DNA from: a virus
Lineage: Duplodnaviria > Heunggongvirae > Uroviricota > Caudoviricetes
Reading direction: 5' to 3' (one strand)
IMG/VR virus record: IMGVR_UViG_2654587540_000005
DNA: 44,661 nt
Every line of letters begins with the position of its first letter. The stretch's first letter is position 1. Below, piece by piece: positions 415-43,653 of this stretch. The notes beneath the pieces are model-generated. The model made no database searches. It saw only the letters and a list, made by a program, of their open reading frames with translations, and was not told the origin of the DNA. The position numbers and the translations under genes were made by a program.

Positions 415-1677
415 CTAATTCATTTTCTTTATTCTCTGGGCGAATTCAAACGGTGTAATGTGTTCTTTTCTGTTGGCATTAAGGTAGTCAGCCCACCATT
501 GTAACATGAGTTTTCTCTCTTCGAGATGTTCCGCTTTGTGGATATATGCTGCCCGAACCGAGTTACGCTCTTGGTGGCTCATTTGACGTTCTACGGCGTC
601 TCTTGACCATAACCCAGATTCGATTAATGCACTACAAGCCATAGTTCGAAAACCGTGACCACAAACTTCAGCTTTCGTGTCGTAACCCATGGTGCGAAGA
701 GCCTTGTTAACAGTGTTTTCGCTGATTGGTTTGTCATCGCGACTAAAACCAATGAACATAAGATCCTTTTCTCCACTTATAGCTTGGAGCCTTTTAAATA
801 ATACTACAGCCTGCTTACTTAGCGGCACAAGATGAGGGGTTTTCATTTTTGAGCCCCTATTTGAATACTTAACCCCCTCCAATTCTCGTCTTTCTGCAGG
901 GATTGTCCATAAGGAGTTTTTGAAATTCACCTCAGACCAACGAGCGAATCTAAGTTCACTTGAACGGATGAAAGTCAGTAGAGTTAATTGAACTGCTATT
1001 TGAGTGATACCTTTCCCTTTATAGGCATCAATCCGTTTGAGAAGCTCAGGAAGTCGTTCGAGGGGAAGGGCAGGGCGGTGATTACTCTTGGCAGTGGTTA
1101 CAGCGCCTGCGAGGTCGTAAGCTGGGTTTTGGTCAATCAAAGCATTGTGAACAGCATACCGCATGATGGCAGTGATTCTTTGTTGTAAACGGGCAGCAAG
1201 TTCAAGATGTCCAGTTTCCTCTGCTTTTTTCAGAGGAACAAGTAAATCACGAGTTTTAAGCTCACTAATGTTCCGCTTACCGATAACAGGAAATACATGA
1301 GTGATCAGGCTGTTTAATACGGTAGTTCTGTGACTGTCTGACCAGGTTCTGTTGCTTGAGTGCCAGTCTCTGGCAACAGTTTCAAAAATGAGTAAGCCTT
1401 TCTCTTCAATCTTTTCTGTTTTTCGCTTTTCGCCAGGGTCAACATTGTTGGCAATGAGTTGCCTTGCTTCTTCTCTTCTACGACGAGCTTCTGCTAAAGA
1501 CACTTCGGGATAAACACCAAGCGCCAACATTTTTTGCTTACCAGAAAAGCGATATTGAAGCCGCCAGTATTTTGAACCCGTAGGGTGAACCAGGAGATGC
1601 ATACCATCCCCATCTGTTAACTTGACGGGCTTTTCAGTAGGTTTCGCATTTCTGACTTTTACCTCAGTTAGTGCCAT
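415..1677 (-). CDS. int: Tyrosine site-specific integrase, P4-like family
   Basis: 420 aa ORF with ATG at 1677 preceded by GGAGG. N-terminus (KPTEKPVKLTDGDGMHLLVHP...YWRLQYRF) is a P4-type arm-binding domain and the C-terminal half has the tyrosine recombinase pattern (...HGFR...RAAYIH...). Confidence 0.85.
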   Translation of the reverse strand: MALTEVKVRNAKPTEKPVKLTDGDGMHLLVHPTGSKYWRLQYRFSGKQKMLALGVYPEVSLAEARRRREEARQLIANNVDPGEKRKTEKIEEKGLLIFETVARDWHSSNRTWSDSHRTTVLNSLITHVFPVIGKRNISELKTRDLLVPLKKAEETGHLELAARLQQRITAIMRYAVHNALIDQNPAYDLAGAVTTAKSNHRPALPLERLPELLKRIDAYKGKGITQIAVQLTLLTFIRSSELRFARWSEVNFKNSLWTIPAERRELEGVKYSNRGSKMKTPHLVPLSKQAVVLFKRLQAISGEKDLMFIGFSRDDKPISENTVNKALRTMGYDTKAEVCGHGFRTMACSALIESGLWSRDAVERQMSHQERNSVRAAYIHKAEHLEERKLMLQWWADYLNANRKEHITPFEFAQRIKKMN

Positions 1678-1941: not shown

Positions 1942-2142
1942 TTACCCATTGGCGCGGCTTAAGAGCTTATTTTTGAATTCACAATGGTCACGATATAACC
2001 ATCTTGCTCGCCCGTGGATAACTTTGGCTTTAGGCAGGTCGCCGGACTTAATCCGGTCGTAGATGAAGGTTTTACCAAAGCCAGTATCAGCCATGATGAA
2101 TTTCAAATCAACCAGGGAATCAGGCTGTAGTTCGTGTTGCAT
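1942..2142 (-). CDS. alpA: AlpA-family HTH protein, putative excisionase/regulator
   Basis: 66 aa ORF with ATG at 2142 and a GGAGA RBS. Small HTH protein (…FIYDRIKSGDLPKAKVIHGRARWLYRD…) typical of AlpA/Xis-like proteins at prophage ends. Confidence 0.7.
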   Translation of the reverse strand: MQHELQPDSLVDLKFIMADTGFGKTFIYDRIKSGDLPKAKVIHGRARWLYRDHCEFKNKLLSRANG

Positions 2143-2668: not shown

Positions 2669-3472
2669 TTAAGCGGCGTCGGTGAATTCAAATAAAAAAC
2701 CGGCTTGCGCCGGCTCTCTCATCTTTCTGTCTACCCATGCTGATATCGATGGCTGGTGCACCTTTTCAATAGCAGCGCGAAGTACAGCTGTACGTGCCAG
2801 TTTGTCGGTAATCTCAGGAAATCGCTTCTCAGTTTTTGGTACGTTAACGGCAACGTTAGTAGAATCTGCGCTGGCGAATGGATACATCCCAAGCACCCTG
2901 ACATCTAGCATCCTCAATCCATGGAGCTTAACCGGGGATTTTCTATTGATGTATAGCTCAGTAAACACCTCATCCATGCGCTGCTCCCACCACTTAGATC
3001 GTATATGTCTGTGCGGTCCGCAACATCCTATTGCGACCCACTCATAACGCTCAGAAAGCCTCACAAGTCGATCAATCGATTCATCAGAATGCCATACAGG
3101 TACGTCCTTGGACGCAAGCCAGTGTGGAACTAATGCTAACTGCTCATCGTTTTCTTCCTCCGTTCCTTCAATGACATCAGGTATAAGAAACCACTCAATT
3201 CGGCTGAACCATTTCCCGACAAAGTCATAAAACCTCTCACTTCGCTTCCCCCAGTCCACCGTTTTCTTTTTCTTTTTGGCTTTATCCCATGCTGAAAACG
3301 CGCCGTTATCAAGTCTGATATCACATGGGATCATTGCCACTTTCTTCATCTGCTCCGGTCTTGCAAATGAAATGAACGCTCCACCATCACGGTACAGAGC
3401 CTTTATGAGCATATCTGTAGGTGCATCTTTATCACCCCAGATAGGACTTCCGTGAAAGTGGACTGTCATCAT
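2669..3472 (-). CDS. TGT-superfamily protein, putative DpdA-like DNA 7-deazaguanine transglycosylase
   Basis: 267 aa ORF starting ATGATG at 3472. Motifs RLDNGAF (cf. TGT DSGGFQ), AIGCCG, LHGLRML and FASADST are consistent with a tRNA-guanine transglycosylase-like barrel. Its start overlaps the stop of the upstream membrane-protein gene. Confidence 0.5.
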   Translation of the reverse strand: MMTVHFHGSPIWGDKDAPTDMLIKALYRDGGAFISFARPEQMKKVAMIPCDIRLDNGAFSAWDKAKKKKKTVDWGKRSERFYDFVGKWFSRIEWFLIPDVIEGTEEENDEQLALVPHWLASKDVPVWHSDESIDRLVRLSERYEWVAIGCCGPHRHIRSKWWEQRMDEVFTELYINRKSPVKLHGLRMLDVRVLGMYPFASADSTNVAVNVPKTEKRFPEITDKLARTAVLRAAIEKVHQPSISAWVDRKMREPAQAGFLFEFTDAA

Positions 3473-3930
3473 CTCTTCCTTAAAATTAATGACCAGATAA
3501 AACCTCCGCCAACCTTAGCAATGAACTGGCCGGCAATGATTCCTGGCATAAGAGAGCCGAATGCGATAAGCGGGAACGATATAGAATCAATAACTGAAGC
3601 GGTTATGTTTGAGGCATTTGCCTTAACTGACCAAGGCTTGCGAATCAACAGTTGATAGACGCTTCCGTCTCCCAGTGATGCGAGAACGAAGGAGGCTGAG
3701 GAGGCAATGGCGATCATGCCGCCTGCAGGATTAATGATGTAACTTAAAACTCCTGACAGTACAGCAAGCCCAGTAACTTTAATAAACCCGATTCGCTCAT
3801 GGAGTACGTCACGAAGAATGAAATCAAGGCCAATCAGAGCGAAAGAATTGACGATAGACCACCATGGTCCGAACAGAAACACAAGGTAGTTAGCTGCGCA
3901 GATTGCTAATACATATACAAGTGCAGCCAT
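3469..3930 (-). CDS. Polytopic membrane protein, putative YhhQ/VUT-family queuosine-precursor transporter (short form)
   Basis: Hydrophobic ORF; preferred start is ATG at 3930 with a GAGGG RBS, whereas the ORF-track start at 3987 is a GTG. Several predicted TM helices and YhhQ-like segments by recollection. Translationally coupled to the DpdA-like gene. Confidence 0.4.
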   Translation of the reverse strand: MAALVYVLAICAANYLVFLFGPWWSIVNSFALIGLDFILRDVLHERIGFIKVTGLAVLSGVLSYIINPAGGMIAIASSASFVLASLGDGSVYQLLIRKPWSVKANASNITASVIDSISFPLIAFGSLMPGIIAGQFIAKVGGGFIWSLILRKR

Positions 3931-4083
3931 AGTTGACCCTCTGACATGTGAATGAGCGAAGAGATAGCCGCCCATGCAATAAGGCACGCTATGGCGACCA
4001 GAACTGGGTTGTAATGCATGGTGACTCCGGATAAAGAAAAACCCGCTGGGTGCGGGTTTGTTATGCGTCGAATGGGTTAGGCG

Positions 4084-4323
4084 TCATCCAAGGTATGGCT
4101 TCTTCCAGTCCTCGCTGGTAGCCAACCTCTCCATGGCAAGCAGAATCGGCAGATTAGATTCGTCTGTCTTCTTCATGATTTCCCAATGAAGCCGTTTTAA
4201 CTCGTGGACCAGCTGGTCTCTGTTTGTTTCCGCATCATTGCTGGCAAGCATCAAGCAGCACTCACCAACAATTCGACACGCTTCCCGGTACAGGTCTTCT
4301 GAAAGCTTCTCATATTCTGACAT
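4084..4323 (-). CDS. Hypothetical early-left protein
   Basis: ATG at 4323 with a GGAGGGG RBS; the ORF-track start at 4341 has a weaker context. 79 aa. Confidence 0.5.
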   Translation of the reverse strand: MSEYEKLSEDLYREACRIVGECCLMLASNDAETNRDQLVHELKRLHWEIMKKTDESNLPILLAMERLATSEDWKKPYLG

Positions 4324-4360
4324 AAGCAACCCCTCCACCATGAAGGGATTTTATATCACA

Positions 4361-4687
4361 TCAGTTTGCATCCTGCTGCTCAGCCCTCCGCGCTTCAGCG
4401 TCGTGATATCCCTGCATGTAAGCATCAGCCCAGTCTGGGTTAACACCTGCCTGAATAGCGATTTCGTCGATACACTCAGGCTCTGCGGCGGCCTTTTTCG
4501 CGTGCTCACGAATCTGCGCGATTAGCTCCTCGGCATTAACCTCAAAGCACTTCAGAGTTTCACATCCGCCAACCTTGTCACCGGAGATTCGGCACCCGCC
4601 ATCATCGTTACTTACGCAGAGGGAAAGGCCACCGGCCTGATTGTGAGATATTTCGATATAAACATTGCCTGTCTTCAATTTAGACAT
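4361..4687 (-). CDS. Hypothetical early-left protein
   Basis: 108 aa ORF with ATG at 4687 and an AGGAGG RBS. Its start overlaps the stop of the upstream gene. Confidence 0.5.
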   Translation of the reverse strand: MSKLKTGNVYIEISHNQAGGLSLCVSNDDGGCRISGDKVGGCETLKCFEVNAEELIAQIREHAKKAAAEPECIDEIAIQAGVNPDWADAYMQGYHDAEARRAEQQDAN

Positions 4688-5294
4688 TTTTAGCCTCCTG
4701 CTGCGGCGCTGCTGGTGCGGCGGCGAGCATTTTCGAGTAGCAATGCACTGTATTCAGCCAGAACCCAACCACCGATTGTCCAGCACGCAACATATCTTTT
4801 GTTGGGTCAATCGGAACAAGTTTCCATCCATTCGGAATCACCGGAGAGTTACCAGCCACCATTTTGTTGGCATCATCAGAATGGTCTACCATTTCGAGGT
4901 GTTGCTCGGTATGGTTTCCTCCCTGAAGCATGGCGGCGCGGCAGGCATTCCAGCCTCTCACCTCTGCAATAGCGGCAACAGCATCGACCGCGTACATTTT
5001 AAGAGGGTTGGGCATTGGTTTTTCTTCAGGTACTACTGGCACTGGAGGGGCGGCGTATACTTCAATTGTCCCATTATCAATAGGCCATTCTCCATCCTTG
5101 ATGTAGTCACTTGTGCCATCGACCTGCTGTTCTGCAATGTGGAAAGCACCTATTGGTTTTGCTTCCAGCGATGCCAGAGCAATTCGTGCCAGTTCTTCCG
5201 CTTCTTCTGCTGGCAGTACAACGTTGCTGCCAGGTCCGTATGTTTCGCGCCACTGCTTGATTGTCAGCAGTCGCTCTTTGGTAATAGTGATCAT
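4680..5294 (-). CDS. Hypothetical early-left protein
   Basis: 204 aa ORF with ATG at 5294 and an AAGGAA RBS. No recognised domain. Confidence 0.55.
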   Translation of the reverse strand: MITITKERLLTIKQWRETYGPGSNVVLPAEEAEELARIALASLEAKPIGAFHIAEQQVDGTSDYIKDGEWPIDNGTIEVYAAPPVPVVPEEKPMPNPLKMYAVDAVAAIAEVRGWNACRAAMLQGGNHTEQHLEMVDHSDDANKMVAGNSPVIPNGWKLVPIDPTKDMLRAGQSVVGFWLNTVHCYSKMLAAAPAAPQQEAKNV

Positions 5295-5806
5295 GCCGCG
5301 TTTCCTTCTTTCTTATTAACAATTACACCGTCATATATTTCATTAAGGTGCCCTCTCAACTCCATGCGCCTTAATGCAGATAACATGTAATCGCATTCAA
5401 CCTGCTTATTTCCAGTAAATGGCTTATCGTCAGGATTACCCCAACAGCAATTACCCTTGGGCCACCCATGTACTTTCCGTACTCTTCCGTTAACAACGTG
5501 AAGTAATCCCCAGCCAGGTGGTAAATCCTCAATTGAAATAATTCCCGGCTCACTAATAAAGAATCGCCAGTCGCCCATTCCAAGAGACGGATTTTTACGA
5601 AAACGCTTTTTTCTATCTGCTAACAAGTCAGCACGAGAACACTTCGCTTCTATCAGGCATGATGCTGAATTTCTGAATCCCATAGCATCTGGCTGTTCTC
5701 CGGTACTGGTTACAGCTATAAAGCGGTCATGAAAACAAACCTTGAACCCGTTGCGCTTAAGGAACTTATACGCAATCTGACAGAGTTCACGGTGTGTTAA
5801 CGCCAT
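5291..5806 (-). CDS. PD-(D/E)XK nuclease-fold protein (MmcB-like)
   Basis: ATG at 5806 with an AAGGAGAG RBS; the ORF-track extension to 5878 is unsupported. Motif ...GEQPDAMGF...CLIEAKCS fits the PD-x(n)-ExK signature. Confidence 0.5.
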   Translation of the reverse strand: MALTHRELCQIAYKFLKRNGFKVCFHDRFIAVTSTGEQPDAMGFRNSASCLIEAKCSRADLLADRKKRFRKNPSLGMGDWRFFISEPGIISIEDLPPGWGLLHVVNGRVRKVHGWPKGNCCWGNPDDKPFTGNKQVECDYMLSALRRMELRGHLNEIYDGVIVNKKEGNAA

Positions 5807-5807
5807 A

Positions 5808-5996
5808 TCACTCTCCTTTAGTGCGCAAGTGGTTTTTCCAGCGGTTTTGCGCCGCGCTGGGCTTTTTGCTAAAACCACAATCCATCATCCCGTAATATTT
5901 CATCAACCCCATCCGTCGGTTGCTGAGTCTCACCCACTGCCAGACGCCAGGAGCGTTTCTACGAACTAACAGAATCTTTGCTTTACGGTTTTTCAT
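5808..5996 (-). CDS. Small basic hypothetical protein
   Basis: 62 aa ORF with ATG at 5996 and an AGGAGA RBS; its stop abuts the start of the next gene. Confidence 0.4.
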   Translation of the reverse strand: MKNRKAKILLVRRNAPGVWQWVRLSNRRMGLMKYYGMMDCGFSKKPSAAQNRWKNHLRTKGE

Positions 5997-6168
5997 CGTT
6001 TTGCTCTCCTGCGTTTCTTTGCTTCGCGTCGTGCAGCCGCAATACCGGTATGGCGGCGCTTTGGTGCCGGGATGATGTTGTCAGCCATCAGGACATGCGG
6101 CTTCGCAATTAGCGCAGAAGCCCAAAAACGAGTCGGGTACGGTAACAAGCCGATACATGCCACACGCA

Positions 6169-6882
6169 TTACTCACCTCCTTTGATGCGAATGCCAGCTG
6201 CGCTTGCTGATTCTTCATATGCGCGTTTAGCAGCGTTAAGGATTGCTGCCAGTGGCGTATAGCCGCCATCCATTCGGATTGTGTTGTGGATGCCAGCCAT
6301 TGTGTCGCGCAATTTGCTGTGGCTAGCAGACAGTTCTGCTATGCGCTTCTCTGCGGATTCCAGCGCTGCAACCAATTCGTCTACAGTTCCGGCAGCTTGC
6401 AGTGCGTAATCGGTAATAGCCATCTCATGATCAATTTCAGTACCGTTCTCATTCGTTGAGGTGATAGCAAAATAATCAGAGTCGATTTCGTTATCAGCTA
6501 AGTGGCGTAGCGTATCGGCAACAAACTGACCGTTTTCGATTAACAGCTTCCCTACCGTTAGCGCAATATCCTCGTTCTCCTGATCGCGGCGTTTGATGTA
6601 TTGCAGGTTTCTTTCCCGTTCATCCAGCAGTGCCAGCACAGTAACCGGATTGGATGCGGCGATGAATTCAGCATTGGCCTGCTGTTCCATTTGGAAATCT
6701 TCATCGAAACCGCTTTCAGGATGCGCTCCTTCAATTCTGCAAATGGGAAGATATCCAACAACGTCACGATGAATTAGCGCATCATCACAATCAAATCGGC
6801 TCTCTCCATATTCGAGCGACCACACACCACACGTTGCTTTCTCTGCCTTTTCACGCAGTGCCTGATAGTCAATCTTGCTCAC
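6169..6882 (-). CDS. Ead/Ea22-like protein
   Basis: Preferred start is GTG at 6882 with an AAGGAGG RBS, overlapping the upstream stop as GTGA. Acidic protein with an Ea22-like character (…NAEFIAASNPVTVLALLDE…). Confidence 0.5.
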   Translation of the reverse strand: MSKIDYQALREKAEKATCGVWSLEYGESRFDCDDALIHRDVVGYLPICRIEGAHPESGFDEDFQMEQQANAEFIAASNPVTVLALLDERERNLQYIKRRDQENEDIALTVGKLLIENGQFVADTLRHLADNEIDSDYFAITSTNENGTEIDHEMAITDYALQAAGTVDELVAALESAEKRIAELSASHSKLRDTMAGIHNTIRMDGGYTPLAAILNAAKRAYEESASAAGIRIKGGE

Positions 6883-7292
6883 TGGTTGCCTCCTTTGCGA
6901 AGCTGTTCCGCACAATGCAGCAGGGCGTCCGTCGCTTCTTTCACCGTAACGATGTCGCCATCGTCCAGCCCGGCAACCGTCGCGTCCTTAACGAACACCG
7001 AGCAAAGGTCATTAAACGCCTGCGCCCGTACTTCAGCCAGAAAAGCATCGGTGGCTGGGGTTTCCGTGAAGTTGTCCTCCCAACCGTAGTACTCCTGACG
7101 ACAGAAGTTATTAAATTCCTTCTCCGACTGTTTAAGCGCCGCATTTTCCGCTGCCAGCGCCGCGCACTTGGCCTCCGCTTCAGCAAATTTACGCACCAGA
7201 TATTCTGCGTTTGTTTCGTTAACCTTTAAATCTCGTGGGATGCATTTACCTTTCAGAAAACCATCCATCTCAATTAGTGACATTTGTTTCAT
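6879..7292 (-). CDS. Hypothetical coiled-coil protein (Ea22-like N-terminal region)
   Basis: ATG at 7292 with a GGAG RBS; the ORF-track start at 7310 is a GTG. Alanine-rich coiled-coil segment. Confidence 0.45.
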
Positions 7293-7453
7293 TTCTTCCC
7301 ACTCCGCCACATTGCATTCAGATATTTGTTTTGATTCACTGATGGAAACGAGTTTATCTTAAGCAATTCCTCTCTCGATGGCATTGGCTTTACGCGTTGG
7401 CGAATAATCATTTCTGCCGGAAGAATGCCGGGATTGTATGCAAGTCCTCTCAT
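7289..7453 (-). CDS. Small hypothetical protein
   Basis: Internal ATG at 7453 with a GAGGA RBS about 8 nt upstream. Part of the tightly packed leftward operon. Confidence 0.3.
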
Positions 7454-7463
7454 GGTAAATTCC

Positions 7464-7757
7464 TCAGTCATTACTGATAGCGCCATAGCGTGAGCGGTAA
7501 TTACGCAGGCGCGGGTCAATTTCAGGGAAGTGGGTATATGTGGCTTTGCGGAATGGTCGGATTGATGTCTGGTAAATTCGCTCGCGTTCTTCTTTCTCTG
7601 CAAGCCATATACAGTGGCGAAATTCCTTTTCCTCTTTCGTTTCCTGCGGTAGAGCCATTATTCGATCGTAGTTTTTTCTGAATTTATCCAGCACCTCCGA
7701 TACGGAATTGCCGGAACAGCGGCGTGGGTCATCCGCACCATACAGAGGCGCTGGCAT
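7464..7757 (-). CDS. Hypothetical phage protein
   Basis: 97 aa ORF with ATG at 7757 and an AAGGA RBS. Confidence 0.5.
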
Positions 7758-7780
7758 AATTAAATCCTTATTTTTCTAAA

Positions 7781-8164
7781 TCAGAATGGGATGGAATCGT
7801 CGTATACAGGAGTGTTCTGCTGGTTACTACTTTGCTGCTGCGGGCCATTTCCTGAAGCTGCAAATCCAATTTTTGCATTCAGTAATTCAAGAGTGATTGA
7901 TTGACCATTTTGCCCCTGATAAACATCAACCCTGATGTTTTCTCCGGTAATTTCCACAATGCCACCTTCAACAAGAACACTACGGTAGTAATCCGCTTGC
8001 GCTCCCGGCTTGGCAAATACAACGGCGCTGTAGTTTGTCCATTCTTTCTTTTTTGTCTGGCGATCGTAATACTGAACGCCAGCACGGATGTTGAATCCGA
8101 TATTTTCCCCGGCCTGAAACTCTCTTGCGGGCTTGTTTAGTCTTACAGTAATCGAATGTGCCAT
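7781..8164 (-). CDS. Phage single-stranded DNA-binding protein
   Basis: ATG at 8164 overlaps the erf stop. Glycine/glutamine-rich tail ending DDSIPF is the characteristic SSB C-terminal tail. Confidence 0.65.
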   Translation of the reverse strand: MAHSITVRLNKPAREFQAGENIGFNIRAGVQYYDRQTKKKEWTNYSAVVFAKPGAQADYYRSVLVEGGIVEITGENIRVDVYQGQNGQSITLELLNAKIGFAASGNGPQQQSSNQQNTPVYDDSIPF

Positions 8165-8769
8165 TAAGCAGCCGCTCCTTCTAATTCGTCTCGTCTGATG
8201 TTGTAAACGCCATGCGCTTTGTGCTGCTCCGGTGTGCCTTCGAGCATCTTCCACGCTTTGGCGAACGCCTGTTTAAGCTCTTCTACGGTGTTTTTCTGCA
8301 TTGCTGCGTCAGTGAATGCTTTTAGAACCTGTTCAGGTGTAGGTGATGGCTTTGATTGCTTTGCTGCTGCGTTCTGCTGATGTTTATGCTCGTCGGTATC
8401 TGCATCTTTCGCATCATCAATGCCGAATAAACCATTGAGGCAATACTTGCGTGCATAAGAGCTTGTAGCTCCAGTAACTTGTGCAGAATCCATTCCTTTC
8501 TTGCTTTCTTCCTCTCGTGCAAGAGCGGTTGCCGTATGACTGTTTTCGCCATCGGTAATAGTTGCCGTGGCTTTCACGTAATACCGATCACCAATCAACA
8601 CAACTTCATCGCTGATTGATAAAAACAGGCCATTCAGTAACGGCTTAACGCCTTCAAGAATGTCTTCGCAGCTTCTGTATTTATATTTGCCGAATGAGTT
8701 GTACTGATTCTTTGGCGCGTTCAGATTCTCCTGAATAGCTGCCAGTCTTGCGTAAAATTCTTTGCTCAT
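8164..8769 (-). CDS. erf: Erf-family single-strand annealing recombinase
   Basis: ATG at 8769 (MSKEFYARLAAIQENLNAPKNQYNSFGKYKYRSCEDILE...), the conserved Erf N-terminus. Position upstream of ssb matches P22-type recombination modules. Confidence 0.8.
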   Translation of the reverse strand: MSKEFYARLAAIQENLNAPKNQYNSFGKYKYRSCEDILEGVKPLLNGLFLSISDEVVLIGDRYYVKATATITDGENSHTATALAREEESKKGMDSAQVTGATSSYARKYCLNGLFGIDDAKDADTDEHKHQQNAAAKQSKPSPTPEQVLKAFTDAAMQKNTVEELKQAFAKAWKMLEGTPEQHKAHGVYNIRRDELEGAAA

Positions 8770-9025
8770 ATTATTGTTCTCAGAATGGACACGGCCCAAG
8801 GAAATAACGCTGATTTAATACTTCGACTCGGGACAAATTAAGGCATACCCGCATCCCTTCGCGGTCACCATTATGGCGATACCAGAGAGCTTTCTGCGTG
8901 TACATGCGTCTCTGTAACTTGCTCTCCTTCACTGTGGTTGCAAGTGACATGAATATCTCCTTCGTTACCGATTAAATCTTTCATCTGACGAATGAATTCT
9001 TCGTCTGACCAGTTATCTGTAAAAC

Positions 9026-9296: not shown

Positions 9297-9809
9297 TTAT
9301 TTGCTCCTGTAGAATTCGCCGTGATGCTTTCTGGCAAAGTCGCAGTAAGCTTTTTTGGCATCTTCTAATTCATTAAAGTACCCTAGATGTTTTTTCTTCC
9401 CGTTTAATTTCCCATAGGCAGCCCACTTTCTACTTTCCTTCTTCCATGTGACTCCTTTGCAACCTGATTTGTTGAGGGTATTTATTTTACTATTCATTGA
9501 ATTCTGTGAGTAAGTTGCAAGCCTCAGATTGCAAATTCTGTTATCTGTCTTTATGCCATTTATATGGTCGATAATACCTTCAGGCTCAACACCGAAAGTG
9601 ATAATCCATGCAAGTCTATGTGCAGCATAGTGTCTTCCGTTAATGAAAATCCTTAAGTAGCCGCTTGTTGTTATTGTTCCGGCAGTTCCACCTATCTTCC
9701 TTGCTCCATAAGATTTTAGCCATGTGAACTCACCAGAAATAGGGTTATATTTGACAACATTATTAATCTCACTTAGGGAAATTAATTCAAGAATCTTTAT
9801 AAGTGCCAT
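9297..9809 (-). CDS. HNH endonuclease with AP2-type DNA-binding domain
   Basis: HNH motif HINGIKTDNRICNLRL and AP2-like segment SGCKGVTWKKESRKWAAYGK. AT-rich; ATG at 9809. Confidence 0.8.
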   Translation of the reverse strand: MALIKILELISLSEINNVVKYNPISGEFTWLKSYGARKIGGTAGTITTSGYLRIFINGRHYAAHRLAWIITFGVEPEGIIDHINGIKTDNRICNLRLATYSQNSMNSKINTLNKSGCKGVTWKKESRKWAAYGKLNGKKKHLGYFNELEDAKKAYCDFARKHHGEFYRSK

Positions 9810-9893
9810 TTTATATCCTATCAACTGCGTTCATTAATCAGCGTTTACGCTCATGAATAAACACCTCTCGTGAAGCGTTATTGGTATGCATAT

Positions 9894-19685: not shown

Positions 19686-20198
19686 ATGAAAGAAATAAAA
19701 TTAACGCCAGAAATGGTGCTTTCTGTTGTTGATTACAATCCATCATCAGGCGACTTTCACTGGAGATGGAGGCGGGGAAGAGAGAGGACCACTTTGACAT
19801 GGAACTCTCGTTTTGCTTTCAAGAAATGCTCATCAATAAATTCTGATGGGTATTTAATGATTATGATTAATGGTAAAGCATACCCTGCTCACAGACTGGC
19901 ATGGTTGATTGTTTATGGCACCATGCCCGATGGTTTTATTGATCACATCAACAGGGTAAGAACAGATAACCGGATATCAAATCTTCGTCTTGTCACTCAT
20001 TCCGAAAATATGCAGAACAGGAAAATTCAGAAGAATAATAAATCTGGATACCGTGGCGTGTCTTGGGATGCTAAGTACGGGAAATGGAGAGCAAGAATTA
20101 ATGCGTCTGGAAAGTGTATTAACCTTGGATACCATGATACTGCCGAACTTGCCGCTGCGGCTTTTGAGGCCGCCAGAATGAAATATCATACCGTTTAA
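19686..20198 (+). CDS. HNH endonuclease with AP2-type domain (second copy)
   Basis: HNH motif HINRVRTDNRISNLRL and AP2-like segment SGYRGVSWDAKYGKWRARI. Paralogous to the 9297..9809 gene; AT-rich. Confidence 0.8.
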   Translation: MKEIKLTPEMVLSVVDYNPSSGDFHWRWRRGRERTTLTWNSRFAFKKCSSINSDGYLMIMINGKAYPAHRLAWLIVYGTMPDGFIDHINRVRTDNRISNLRLVTHSENMQNRKIQKNNKSGYRGVSWDAKYGKWRARINASGKCINLGYHDTAELAAAAFEAARMKYHTV

Positions 20199-43578: not shown

Positions 43579-43653
43579 TGGTGTCCCCTGCAGGAATCGA
43601 ACCTGCAATTAGCCCTTAGGAGGGGCTCGTTATATCCATTTAACTAAGAGGAC
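43579..43653 (-). tRNA. argW: tRNA-Arg (anticodon CCU)
   Basis: 75-nt minus-strand cloverleaf: 7-bp acceptor stem (GTCCTCT/AGGGGAC), anticodon stem AGCCC/GGGCT with loop CUCCUAA giving anticodon CCU, T-arm GGTTCGATTCC, 3' ACCA. Confidence 0.9.

Follow-up and report, generated by a model that had tools for sequence, protein, structure and literature searches.

A predicted MmcB-like PD-(D/E)XK nuclease among mosaic accessory genes at the distal end of the early-left operon of a lambdoid Escherichia coli prophage

The window analysed here is a 44,661-nt stretch of DNA (IMG/VR record IMGVR_UViG_2654587540_000005) from a lambdoid/P22-like Escherichia coli prophage, and the subject of this study is a block of five small genes, g62, gC, gD, gE and gF, which lie on its minus strand at 4084..5996. 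An earlier note on this DNA had regarded the five genes as candidates for anti-restriction, anti-RecBCD or similar counter-defence roles. We consider the chances about even that they are ordinary mosaic early accessory genes, among which gC encodes a predicted DNA endonuclease that would act on structured or damaged DNA and aid phage replication and recombination. Nothing in this is categorically new: what is gained is a better annotation for a very common hypothetical protein and a documented recombination junction inside a gene, and the picture of lambdoid phages stays as it is unless the gC nuclease proves to have a defence-related role.

The gC gene (5291..5806, minus strand) encodes a stand-alone PD-(D/E)XK protein of 171 amino acids (aa) that matches the PHROG families phrog_631 (E 1e-94) and phrog_9263 (E 2e-123). 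The PD-x(n)-ExK motif that had been noticed earlier in this gene is real and conserved: in 40 diverse relatives, with identities down to 34%, D40 is invariant and E37, P39, E53, K55, S57, D64, K67 and R70 show conservation of at least 90%, and D40, E53 and K55 are all invariant in 24 closer relatives. In the AlphaFold2 model (mean pLDDT 68.5, with a well-predicted core and a poorly predicted C-terminal third) the elements follow each other in the order alpha-beta-beta-beta-alpha-beta, which is that of the PD-(D/E)XK core fold, and the catalytic residues are placed as this fold demands, with D40 where strand 2 begins and E53-x-K55 where strand 3 ends. When a profile of the gC family was compared with all PDB sequences, 3dnx was the only entry recovered (E 1.1e-4), aligned over ...PDviG...iEcKvSRsDFlaDkK; single-sequence PDB searches with gC, gD, gE and gF gave nothing significant. 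Foldseek comparison with viral models (BFVD) matched gC to phage proteins that carry the name 'MmcB-like DNA repair protein'. The model fold and the profile match thus show gC to be a PD-(D/E)XK-fold protein, as the earlier note had read it, with an intact D-ExK site and with 3dnx (SPO1766), the solved member of the MmcB-like family, as its closest solved relative in both structure and profile.

With regard to family membership, gC itself matched no Pfam family at E <= 0.1 and did not reach the threshold of PF06319, so that PF06319 in its present definition does not include it; nor was there a match between gC and Hjc (PF01870). Its relatives matched PF06319 in five of 40 cases (best E 2.9e-4), and Hjc weakly in six of 40 (best E 1.3e-4, with two scores, 16.9 and 17.7 bits, below the 21.1-bit cutoff). 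No Pfam or NCBIfam model covers the gC family. We have filed gC in the MmcB-like/AHJR branch of the PD-(D/E)XK nucleases, as a putative distant relative of MmcB. The MmcB-like family (PF06319/COG5321/DUF1052, represented by Caulobacter crescentus MmcB and by 3dnx) and gC are both single-domain proteins of ~150-170 aa with a PD-(D/E)XK core, and they have a strand 3 signature in common, [IV]E[CV]KxSRxDFxxDxK. Unlike the MmcB family, gC carries the invariant motifs GMGDWRF, LPxGWGLL and NKQxEC, which lie outside the 3dnx profile alignment (this ended at DFxxDxK). Moreover, gC is borne by phages and plasmids, whereas MmcB is a chromosomal SOS gene of alphaproteobacteria, and the role in crosslink repair is known only for the Caulobacter protein. 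The archaeal Hjc/Hje proteins (PF01870) have the same minimal nuclease fold as gC. The annotation of MmcB-like PD-(D/E)XK nuclease, with the predicted catalytic residues D40, E53 and K55, can now be given to a protein that is commonly listed as hypothetical in E. coli prophages, Stx phages and P1/P7 phage-plasmids.

Several observations concern the extent and architecture of gC and its relatives. The relatives begin with M-x-LTH, which favours the ATG at 5806 as the start of gC, and database entries of 185-235 aa may partly reflect an in-frame GTG upstream at 5878, which would give an open reading frame (ORF) of 195 aa. In phrog_9263, which has 230 positions, g62 corresponds to positions 1-61 and gC to positions 62-230, and in some phages the two apparently form one ORF. 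Two distant relatives (P0254 and P0256) have C-terminal extensions of ~110-130 aa containing '..HGS.ARDLDLV..' or '..LHDLDVLL..', motifs that recall nucleotidyltransferase-fold proteins; a third (P0212) has a TniB-like ATPase N-terminus, and the extra parts of other long relatives are unannotated.

MmcB is described as a PD-(D/E)XK endonuclease of mitomycin C and crosslink tolerance that protects Caulobacter from mitomycin C (PMC9578287), and COG5321/PF06319 has been tied to archaeal Holliday junction resolvases (PMC1189080). By likeness to MmcB, which acts in crosslink repair, and to Hjc, which resolves junctions, gC would be an active Mg2+-dependent DNA endonuclease that is made early after infection or induction and cuts branches, stalled forks and lesions, presumably together with Erf, SSB, Abc2, NinB and RusA, all of which are encoded elsewhere in the genome. 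Since the nearest relatives of gC are repair and junction-resolving nucleases, and since its neighbours in other genomes include replication and recombination genes, DNA processing is indicated rather than counter-defence. A number of points weigh against this reading. The genome already encodes RusA and YbcO, which would make a junction-resolving gC redundant, and a variable accessory location is equally typical of counter-defence genes. The AlphaFold2 model is of moderate quality only, with pLDDT values below 55 in the C-terminal third, and gC stays below threshold on every Pfam model. The literature search found no functional study of phage MmcB-like proteins. Finally, the genes around gC relatives are for the most part small ORFs without annotation, which makes the evidence from genomic context thin.

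Genes related to gC are very widespread. There are 324 closer relatives, and an exhaustive profile search returned 3,279 clusters at 50% identity with E <= 1e-3, or 2,398 with E <= 1e-10. Among 5,426 complete E. coli genomes the gC gene (at >=95% identity and >=80% coverage) is found in 910 (17%), in up to six copies, and 248 of its places are on plasmids. By tblastn it was recovered from 643 phage records, where it is almost always labelled 'hypothetical'; these take in P7 (Upf89.0/89.5), Stx phages, siphophages of Klebsiella and Vibrio and, among virulent phages, Ackermannviridae. In phages and plasmids of E. coli, g62 travels with gC, and the two together were matched by 466 PLSDB plasmids. 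The position of the gene varies: a Providencia prophage has it in its nin region, flanked by a Lar-like gene and RusA, in an uncultured contig of lytic type it is surrounded by small early ORFs, and in Vibrio phage phi 2 it comes after a DUF551 protein. At 79 IMG/VR loci the most frequent neighbours were Eaa/DUF551-like proteins, in 19 cases and mostly downstream, and Ead/Ea22-like proteins, in 15 and mostly upstream; those with an annotation belong to DNA metabolism and include NinG, NinB, YbcO, SSB, DnaB, helicases and methyltransferases of four families. In the P1-like plasmid pO26_98E11_1 (locus L002, 4377..4893) the gC region is annotated only as a short frameshifted pseudogene, and the DUF551 genes next to it as partial, and judged from this the gC module appears to be decaying in some phage-plasmids.

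The methyltransferases bring up a different role for gC, namely that it degrades the DNA of the host or of competing phages, in takeover or superinfection exclusion, while the phage's own DNA is shielded by a methyltransferase or by 7-deazaguanine. In two unrelated Vibrio phages, 431E46.1 (L005, 2891..4082) and Kuja (L006, 2660..4103), the start of the gC homologue falls on or within the stop codon of an upstream DNA methyltransferase gene, a methyltransferase occurs within two genes of gC, and then always upstream, at five or six of the 79 viral loci, and the window itself encodes a Dam-type methylase and a DpdA-like gene. However, the adjacent methyltransferases belong to at least four families (C5, N6_N4, Dam and MT-A70) while the nuclease beside them stays 40-60% identical, which means that these are not cognate restriction-modification pairs, and ~92% of the loci have no methyltransferase nearby. 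In the window, moreover, Dam lies more than 10 kb away and the DpdA-like gene and its partner lie past a terminator, and the 910 E. coli genomes carry up to six copies of gC without obvious protection partners. We regard an offensive nuclease of this kind as very unlikely, the least likely of the explanations considered here. The narrower idea that gC is a restriction-modification partner was rejected after a check of these loci and of GenBank phages, with a methyltransferase near gC at ~8% of the 79 loci and these from four different families.

The DNA searches also showed that the block is put together from parts of very different distribution. The right-hand part (4914..6200, comprising the N-terminal two thirds of gD, gC, g62 and the gene g58 upstream of it) is widespread, with 96-98% identity, in Stx phages, P1/P7-like phage-plasmids and many E. 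coli chromosomes, while the left-hand part (4000..4945, comprising the C-terminal third of gD, gE, gF and the terminator) occurs in only two or three of the 5,426 complete E. coli genomes. Where the left module occurs, it is preceded by a different Eaa-like N-terminus and gC is absent. The matches to the two modules meet within gD at 4914..4945, which codes for ACRAAMLQGGN; with window positions 4000-6200 as the query, matches to the right module begin at query positions 915-924, and with 4000-4950 as the query, those to the left module end at 946. The proteins reflect the same division, as residues 1-125 of gD match the N-terminal part of DUF551/Eaa proteins at 80% identity and residues 113-204 match, at 98%, the C-terminus of a 160-aa protein of the rare prophage. 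Since the left module is found in two or three genomes without gC, the gC gene in 910, and the junction lies within gD, the five genes are not a unit. As the alignments show it, they do not represent one system; they comprise at least two independently exchanged cassettes that are joined inside gD at the linker GWNACRAAMLQ. The lower G+C content of gC (0.44, and 0.38 at third codon positions, GC3) relative to its neighbours (G+C 0.48-0.55, GC3 0.47-0.59) is consistent with a cassette of separate origin. Read at this level, the arrangement is one of classical regional mosaicism, with short conserved linkers as the likely crossover points.

The conserved linker GWNACRAAMLQGGN coincides with the DNA breakpoint between the widespread and the rare module. 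A similar linker, '...AMLQAGNSP...', is present where gE-like sequence is fused to DUF551 (P0144/P0145). This suggests that the linker may be a recurrent in-frame crossover site of Eaa-type proteins. gE is itself modular: its N-terminal module (~68 aa) occurs alone as a protein in many Enterobacteriaceae, and its C-terminal module (~40 aa) is found elsewhere on unrelated N-termini. The block thereby provides an example of exo-xis accessory proteins rebuilt by recombination at a short linker inside a coding sequence, and a caution that adjacent coupled genes in the exo-xis region should not be taken as a functional unit. According to the mechanism we propose, the block would consist of small accessory genes that are translationally coupled and co-expressed from pL and that were assembled from at least two circulating cassettes, without any dedicated multi-gene system.

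gD (4680..5294, minus strand) encodes an acidic Eaa-like chimera of 204 aa that matches phrog_60 and other PHROGs and belongs to the Eaa/DUF551 pool, in which at least 8,000 relatives were found. gD has no match in Pfam and lacks the DUF551 domain (PF04448); relatives that share its first ~125 aa carry PF04448 C-terminally, and gD has the rare 92-aa C-terminal module instead. gE (4361..4687, minus strand) encodes an acidic two-module orphan of 108 aa (phrog_24647, E 1.5e-19), whose fold gave no match. gF (4084..4323, minus strand), the last gene of the operon, encodes an acidic protein of 79 aa and passed the threshold of Pfam DUF2767 (PF10965; 24.9 bits against a cutoff of 20.7, E 2e-5), to which it matches over its first 33 residues only (profile positions 2-34 of 67), and RefSeq calls the identical protein 'DUF2767 family protein'. 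The same family includes E. coli YdhZ, which corresponds to FumD in NCBIfam (NF007630); for this model gF scored 20.8 bits, far below the equivalog cutoff of 82, so that no fumarase function can be deduced for gF. A literature search on DUF2767 and ydhZ/fumarase found nothing in the library that was searched. The strongly basic g58 and g62 products are conserved as PHROGs without an assigned function.

Scans of the five proteins and their neighbours against Pfam, PHROGs, NCBIfam and PADLOC yielded only DUF2767 and unnamed PHROGs, and the PADLOC defence models matched none of the block proteins apart from a chance-level hit of PglZ to gD (E 0.019). The earlier statement that the genes have no recognisable function was essentially right, DUF2767 for gF being the exception among Pfam, NCBIfam and PADLOC assignments. 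Clear homology to housekeeping phage functions, which the earlier note had named as evidence against a counter-defence role, was not found.

A counter-defence role would mean that gD, gE, gF or the nuclease gC inactivates host immunity, for instance restriction, abortive infection or signalling. The block lies in a variable, early-expressed accessory region beside Abc2, a known counter-defence gene, and published screens have found such genes to cluster in accessory regions, including those around abc2/abc1 (bioRxiv 10.1101/2023.04.06.535777). Module turnover is high, and the gD, gE and gF proteins share their small size and acidic pI (4.6-5.0) with many inhibitor proteins. In the accessory-gene screen of Silas et al., the main text does not mention DUF551 or Ea22. 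Against such a role, no likeness to characterised anti-defence proteins was seen in Pfam, PHROGs, NCBIfam or the PDB, none of which is a library dedicated to anti-defence, and in these general libraries no homologue of Ocr, ArdA, Ral, Abc2, Gam or Acr/Acb/Tad/Apyc was found among the five proteins. The fold of gE is without a match, gC has its relatives among nucleases of repair and resolution, and gC is 60-88% identical across genera, unlike typical inhibitors, which evolve fast. With regard to RecBCD in particular, for which the earlier note had considered the block, the slot is already taken by a bona fide Abc2 encoded at 7464..7757. We judge counter-defence, which these results neither support nor refute, to be unlikely. 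More speculatively, the widespread gC family might serve not for repair but as a weapon or a counter-measure of general use, for example by cleaving a DNA structure or lesion that a defence system generates or by attacking unmodified competitor or host DNA, the latter being hinted at by the occasional translational coupling to methyltransferases; separately, gE and gF, both small and acidic, might inhibit a host system in a new way. We hold this to be rather improbable.

Returning to the reading as ordinary accessory genes, g58, g62, gD, gE and gF have no predictable activity and would most likely be individually dispensable modulators, as in the lambda exo-xis region. The block has the same position as the early-left genes of P22 and lambda (eaA-eaI, Ea22 and the exo-xis ORFs), with the recombination and abc genes upstream of it and xis and int downstream, it shows the same tight translational coupling, and its neighbour is Ead/Ea22-like. 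gD differs from the Eaa/DUF551 proteins in being without the DUF551 domain itself, and gE and gF are rare additions to the set. We know of no mechanism for the P22/lambda early-left accessory and Eaa/DUF551 families. By analogy with lambda Ea22, orf60a, orf61, orf63 and Ea8.5, the non-enzymatic proteins might instead tune the lysis-lysogeny decision or the efficiency of induction. The block occupies the genomic position of the exo-xis region of lambda and Stx phages, it is coupled directly to an Ead/Ea22-like gene, the N-terminal module of gD is common to the Eaa/Ea22 pool (phrog_60), and exo-xis genes have been reported to alter lysogenisation and induction (PMC7093339, PMC3824215). However, the five proteins are not homologous to the lambda ORFs that have been studied, as the likeness to Ea22 is confined to the neighbour, and a conserved catalytic nuclease would be left unexplained; this alternative, a reasonable one in itself, also appears quite improbable.

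The block is the promoter-distal part of the leftward early operon, which would be of the pL, 'exo-xis' type, and is equivalent to the lambda exo-xis or P22 ea region; its position bears out the earlier description of the genes as uncharacterised early-left accessory genes. All five ORFs were found where they had been placed, and the claim that they overlap or abut holds for four of the five junctions. g62 (5808..5996, minus strand; 62 aa, pI 11.6; phrog_1380, E 1e-39) and gC are separated by a 1-nt spacer (TGAtATG), gC and gD overlap by 4 nt (ATGA) and gD and gE by 8 nt (ATGTCTAA), whereas gE and gF lie 37 nt apart if gF begins at ATG 4323, the start used by RefSeq for the identical protein, or 19 nt apart if it begins at ATG 4341. 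A good ribosome-binding site had also been claimed for each gene, and a Shine-Dalgarno-like motif does precede every start (AGGAG for g62, AAGGAG for gC, GAAGGA for gD, AGGAGG for gE and GGAGG for gF, as read from the DNA). The upstream limit of the block, on the other hand, proved arbitrary, as g58 (5993..6169, minus strand; 58 aa, pI 12; phrog_13831, E 7e-43) had been missed; this gene, an annotated coding sequence in RefSeq relatives, shares ATGA with g62 and TAATG with the Ea22-like gene as overlaps and is coupled into the same chain. Further upstream on the minus strand follow the Ead/Ea22-like protein of 237 aa (6169..6882, start GTG 6882; PF13935, E 5.6e-25) and an Ea22-associated coiled-coil protein of 137 aa (6879..7292; phrog_614, E 5e-55), whose GTGA start/stop overlap was confirmed at 6879..6882, then a DUF2737 gene (7289..7456) with an ATGA overlap to the latter, and directly beyond it Abc2. 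Since g58, the Ea22-like pair and DUF2737 are coupled alike, the tight coupling belongs to the whole leftward operon and not to the five genes. A sequence scan of 3400..8400 found no promoter-like site on the minus strand.

The operon is closed by an intrinsic terminator (4039..4059, minus strand; AAACCCGCACCCAGCGGGTTTTTC), which was found by a terminator scan and has an 8-bp stem followed by a T-run. The terminator-like scan together with the sequence revealed a small hairpin in the gE-gF spacer (4330..4347, minus strand), with a stem of 6 bp (CCCTTC...GAGGGG) that takes in the gF Shine-Dalgarno motif and the alternative ATG 4341. This hairpin could make translation of gF depend on ribosomes completing gE, and it is possible that gF is tied to gE in this way, by coupling or attenuation. 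An antisense ORF of 241 aa (4665..5390, plus strand), opposite gD and gC, found no counterpart among the PHROGs and is regarded as a probable shadow ORF.

Downstream of the terminator the minus strand encodes a hydrophobic 37-aa ORF (3906..4019), which precedes a Vut_1/YhhQ-like transporter (3469..3930; PF02592, E 3e-9) and, overlapping the latter, a DpdA-like transglycosylase (2669..3472; phrog_887 'queuine tRNA-ribosyltransferase', E 4e-95). The stretch 2669..4019 is a probable 7-deazaguanine DNA-modification cassette, as judged from these similarities, and its E. coli relatives are only ~86% identical, with none covering more than 68%. The earlier suggestion that the block acts alongside this pair found no support and is contradicted by the terminator at 4059..4039 between them and by the independent distribution of the modules, as the gC module mostly travels without the DpdA/YhhQ pair, in P1/P7-like plasmids, Stx phages and virulent phages.

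As for the remainder of the window, an integrase (415..1677) and an excisionase-like gene (1942..2142) lie at the left end. Beyond the full-length, P22-type anti-RecBCD protein Abc2 (minus strand; PF11043, E 2e-63) are SSB with a DDSIPF tail (7781..8164) and Erf (8164..8799); Abc2, DUF2737, SSB and Erf together form a P22-like recombination module without its own exonuclease. The right arm contains a CI-like repressor region, O, a primase-helicase, NinB, Dam, YbcO, RusA and Q. The best DNA matches of the window, mEp043, Sf101, HK140 and Stx-converting phages, are 95-97% identical, in patches only. After Q, Pfam identified a homing-endonuclease-like gene with HNH_3 and AP2 domains (19686..20198, plus strand); an ORF in the early-left arm (9297..9824, minus strand) looks by eye, from reading alone, like this gene, with ..IDHINGIKTDNRICNLRL.. 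followed by ..KGVTWKKESRKWAAY.. in its sequence. The sole tRNA gene of the window, tRNA-Arg(CCT) (43579..43653, minus strand), is located close to the right end, with the integrase at the other, and may mark the attachment site or the prophage boundary.

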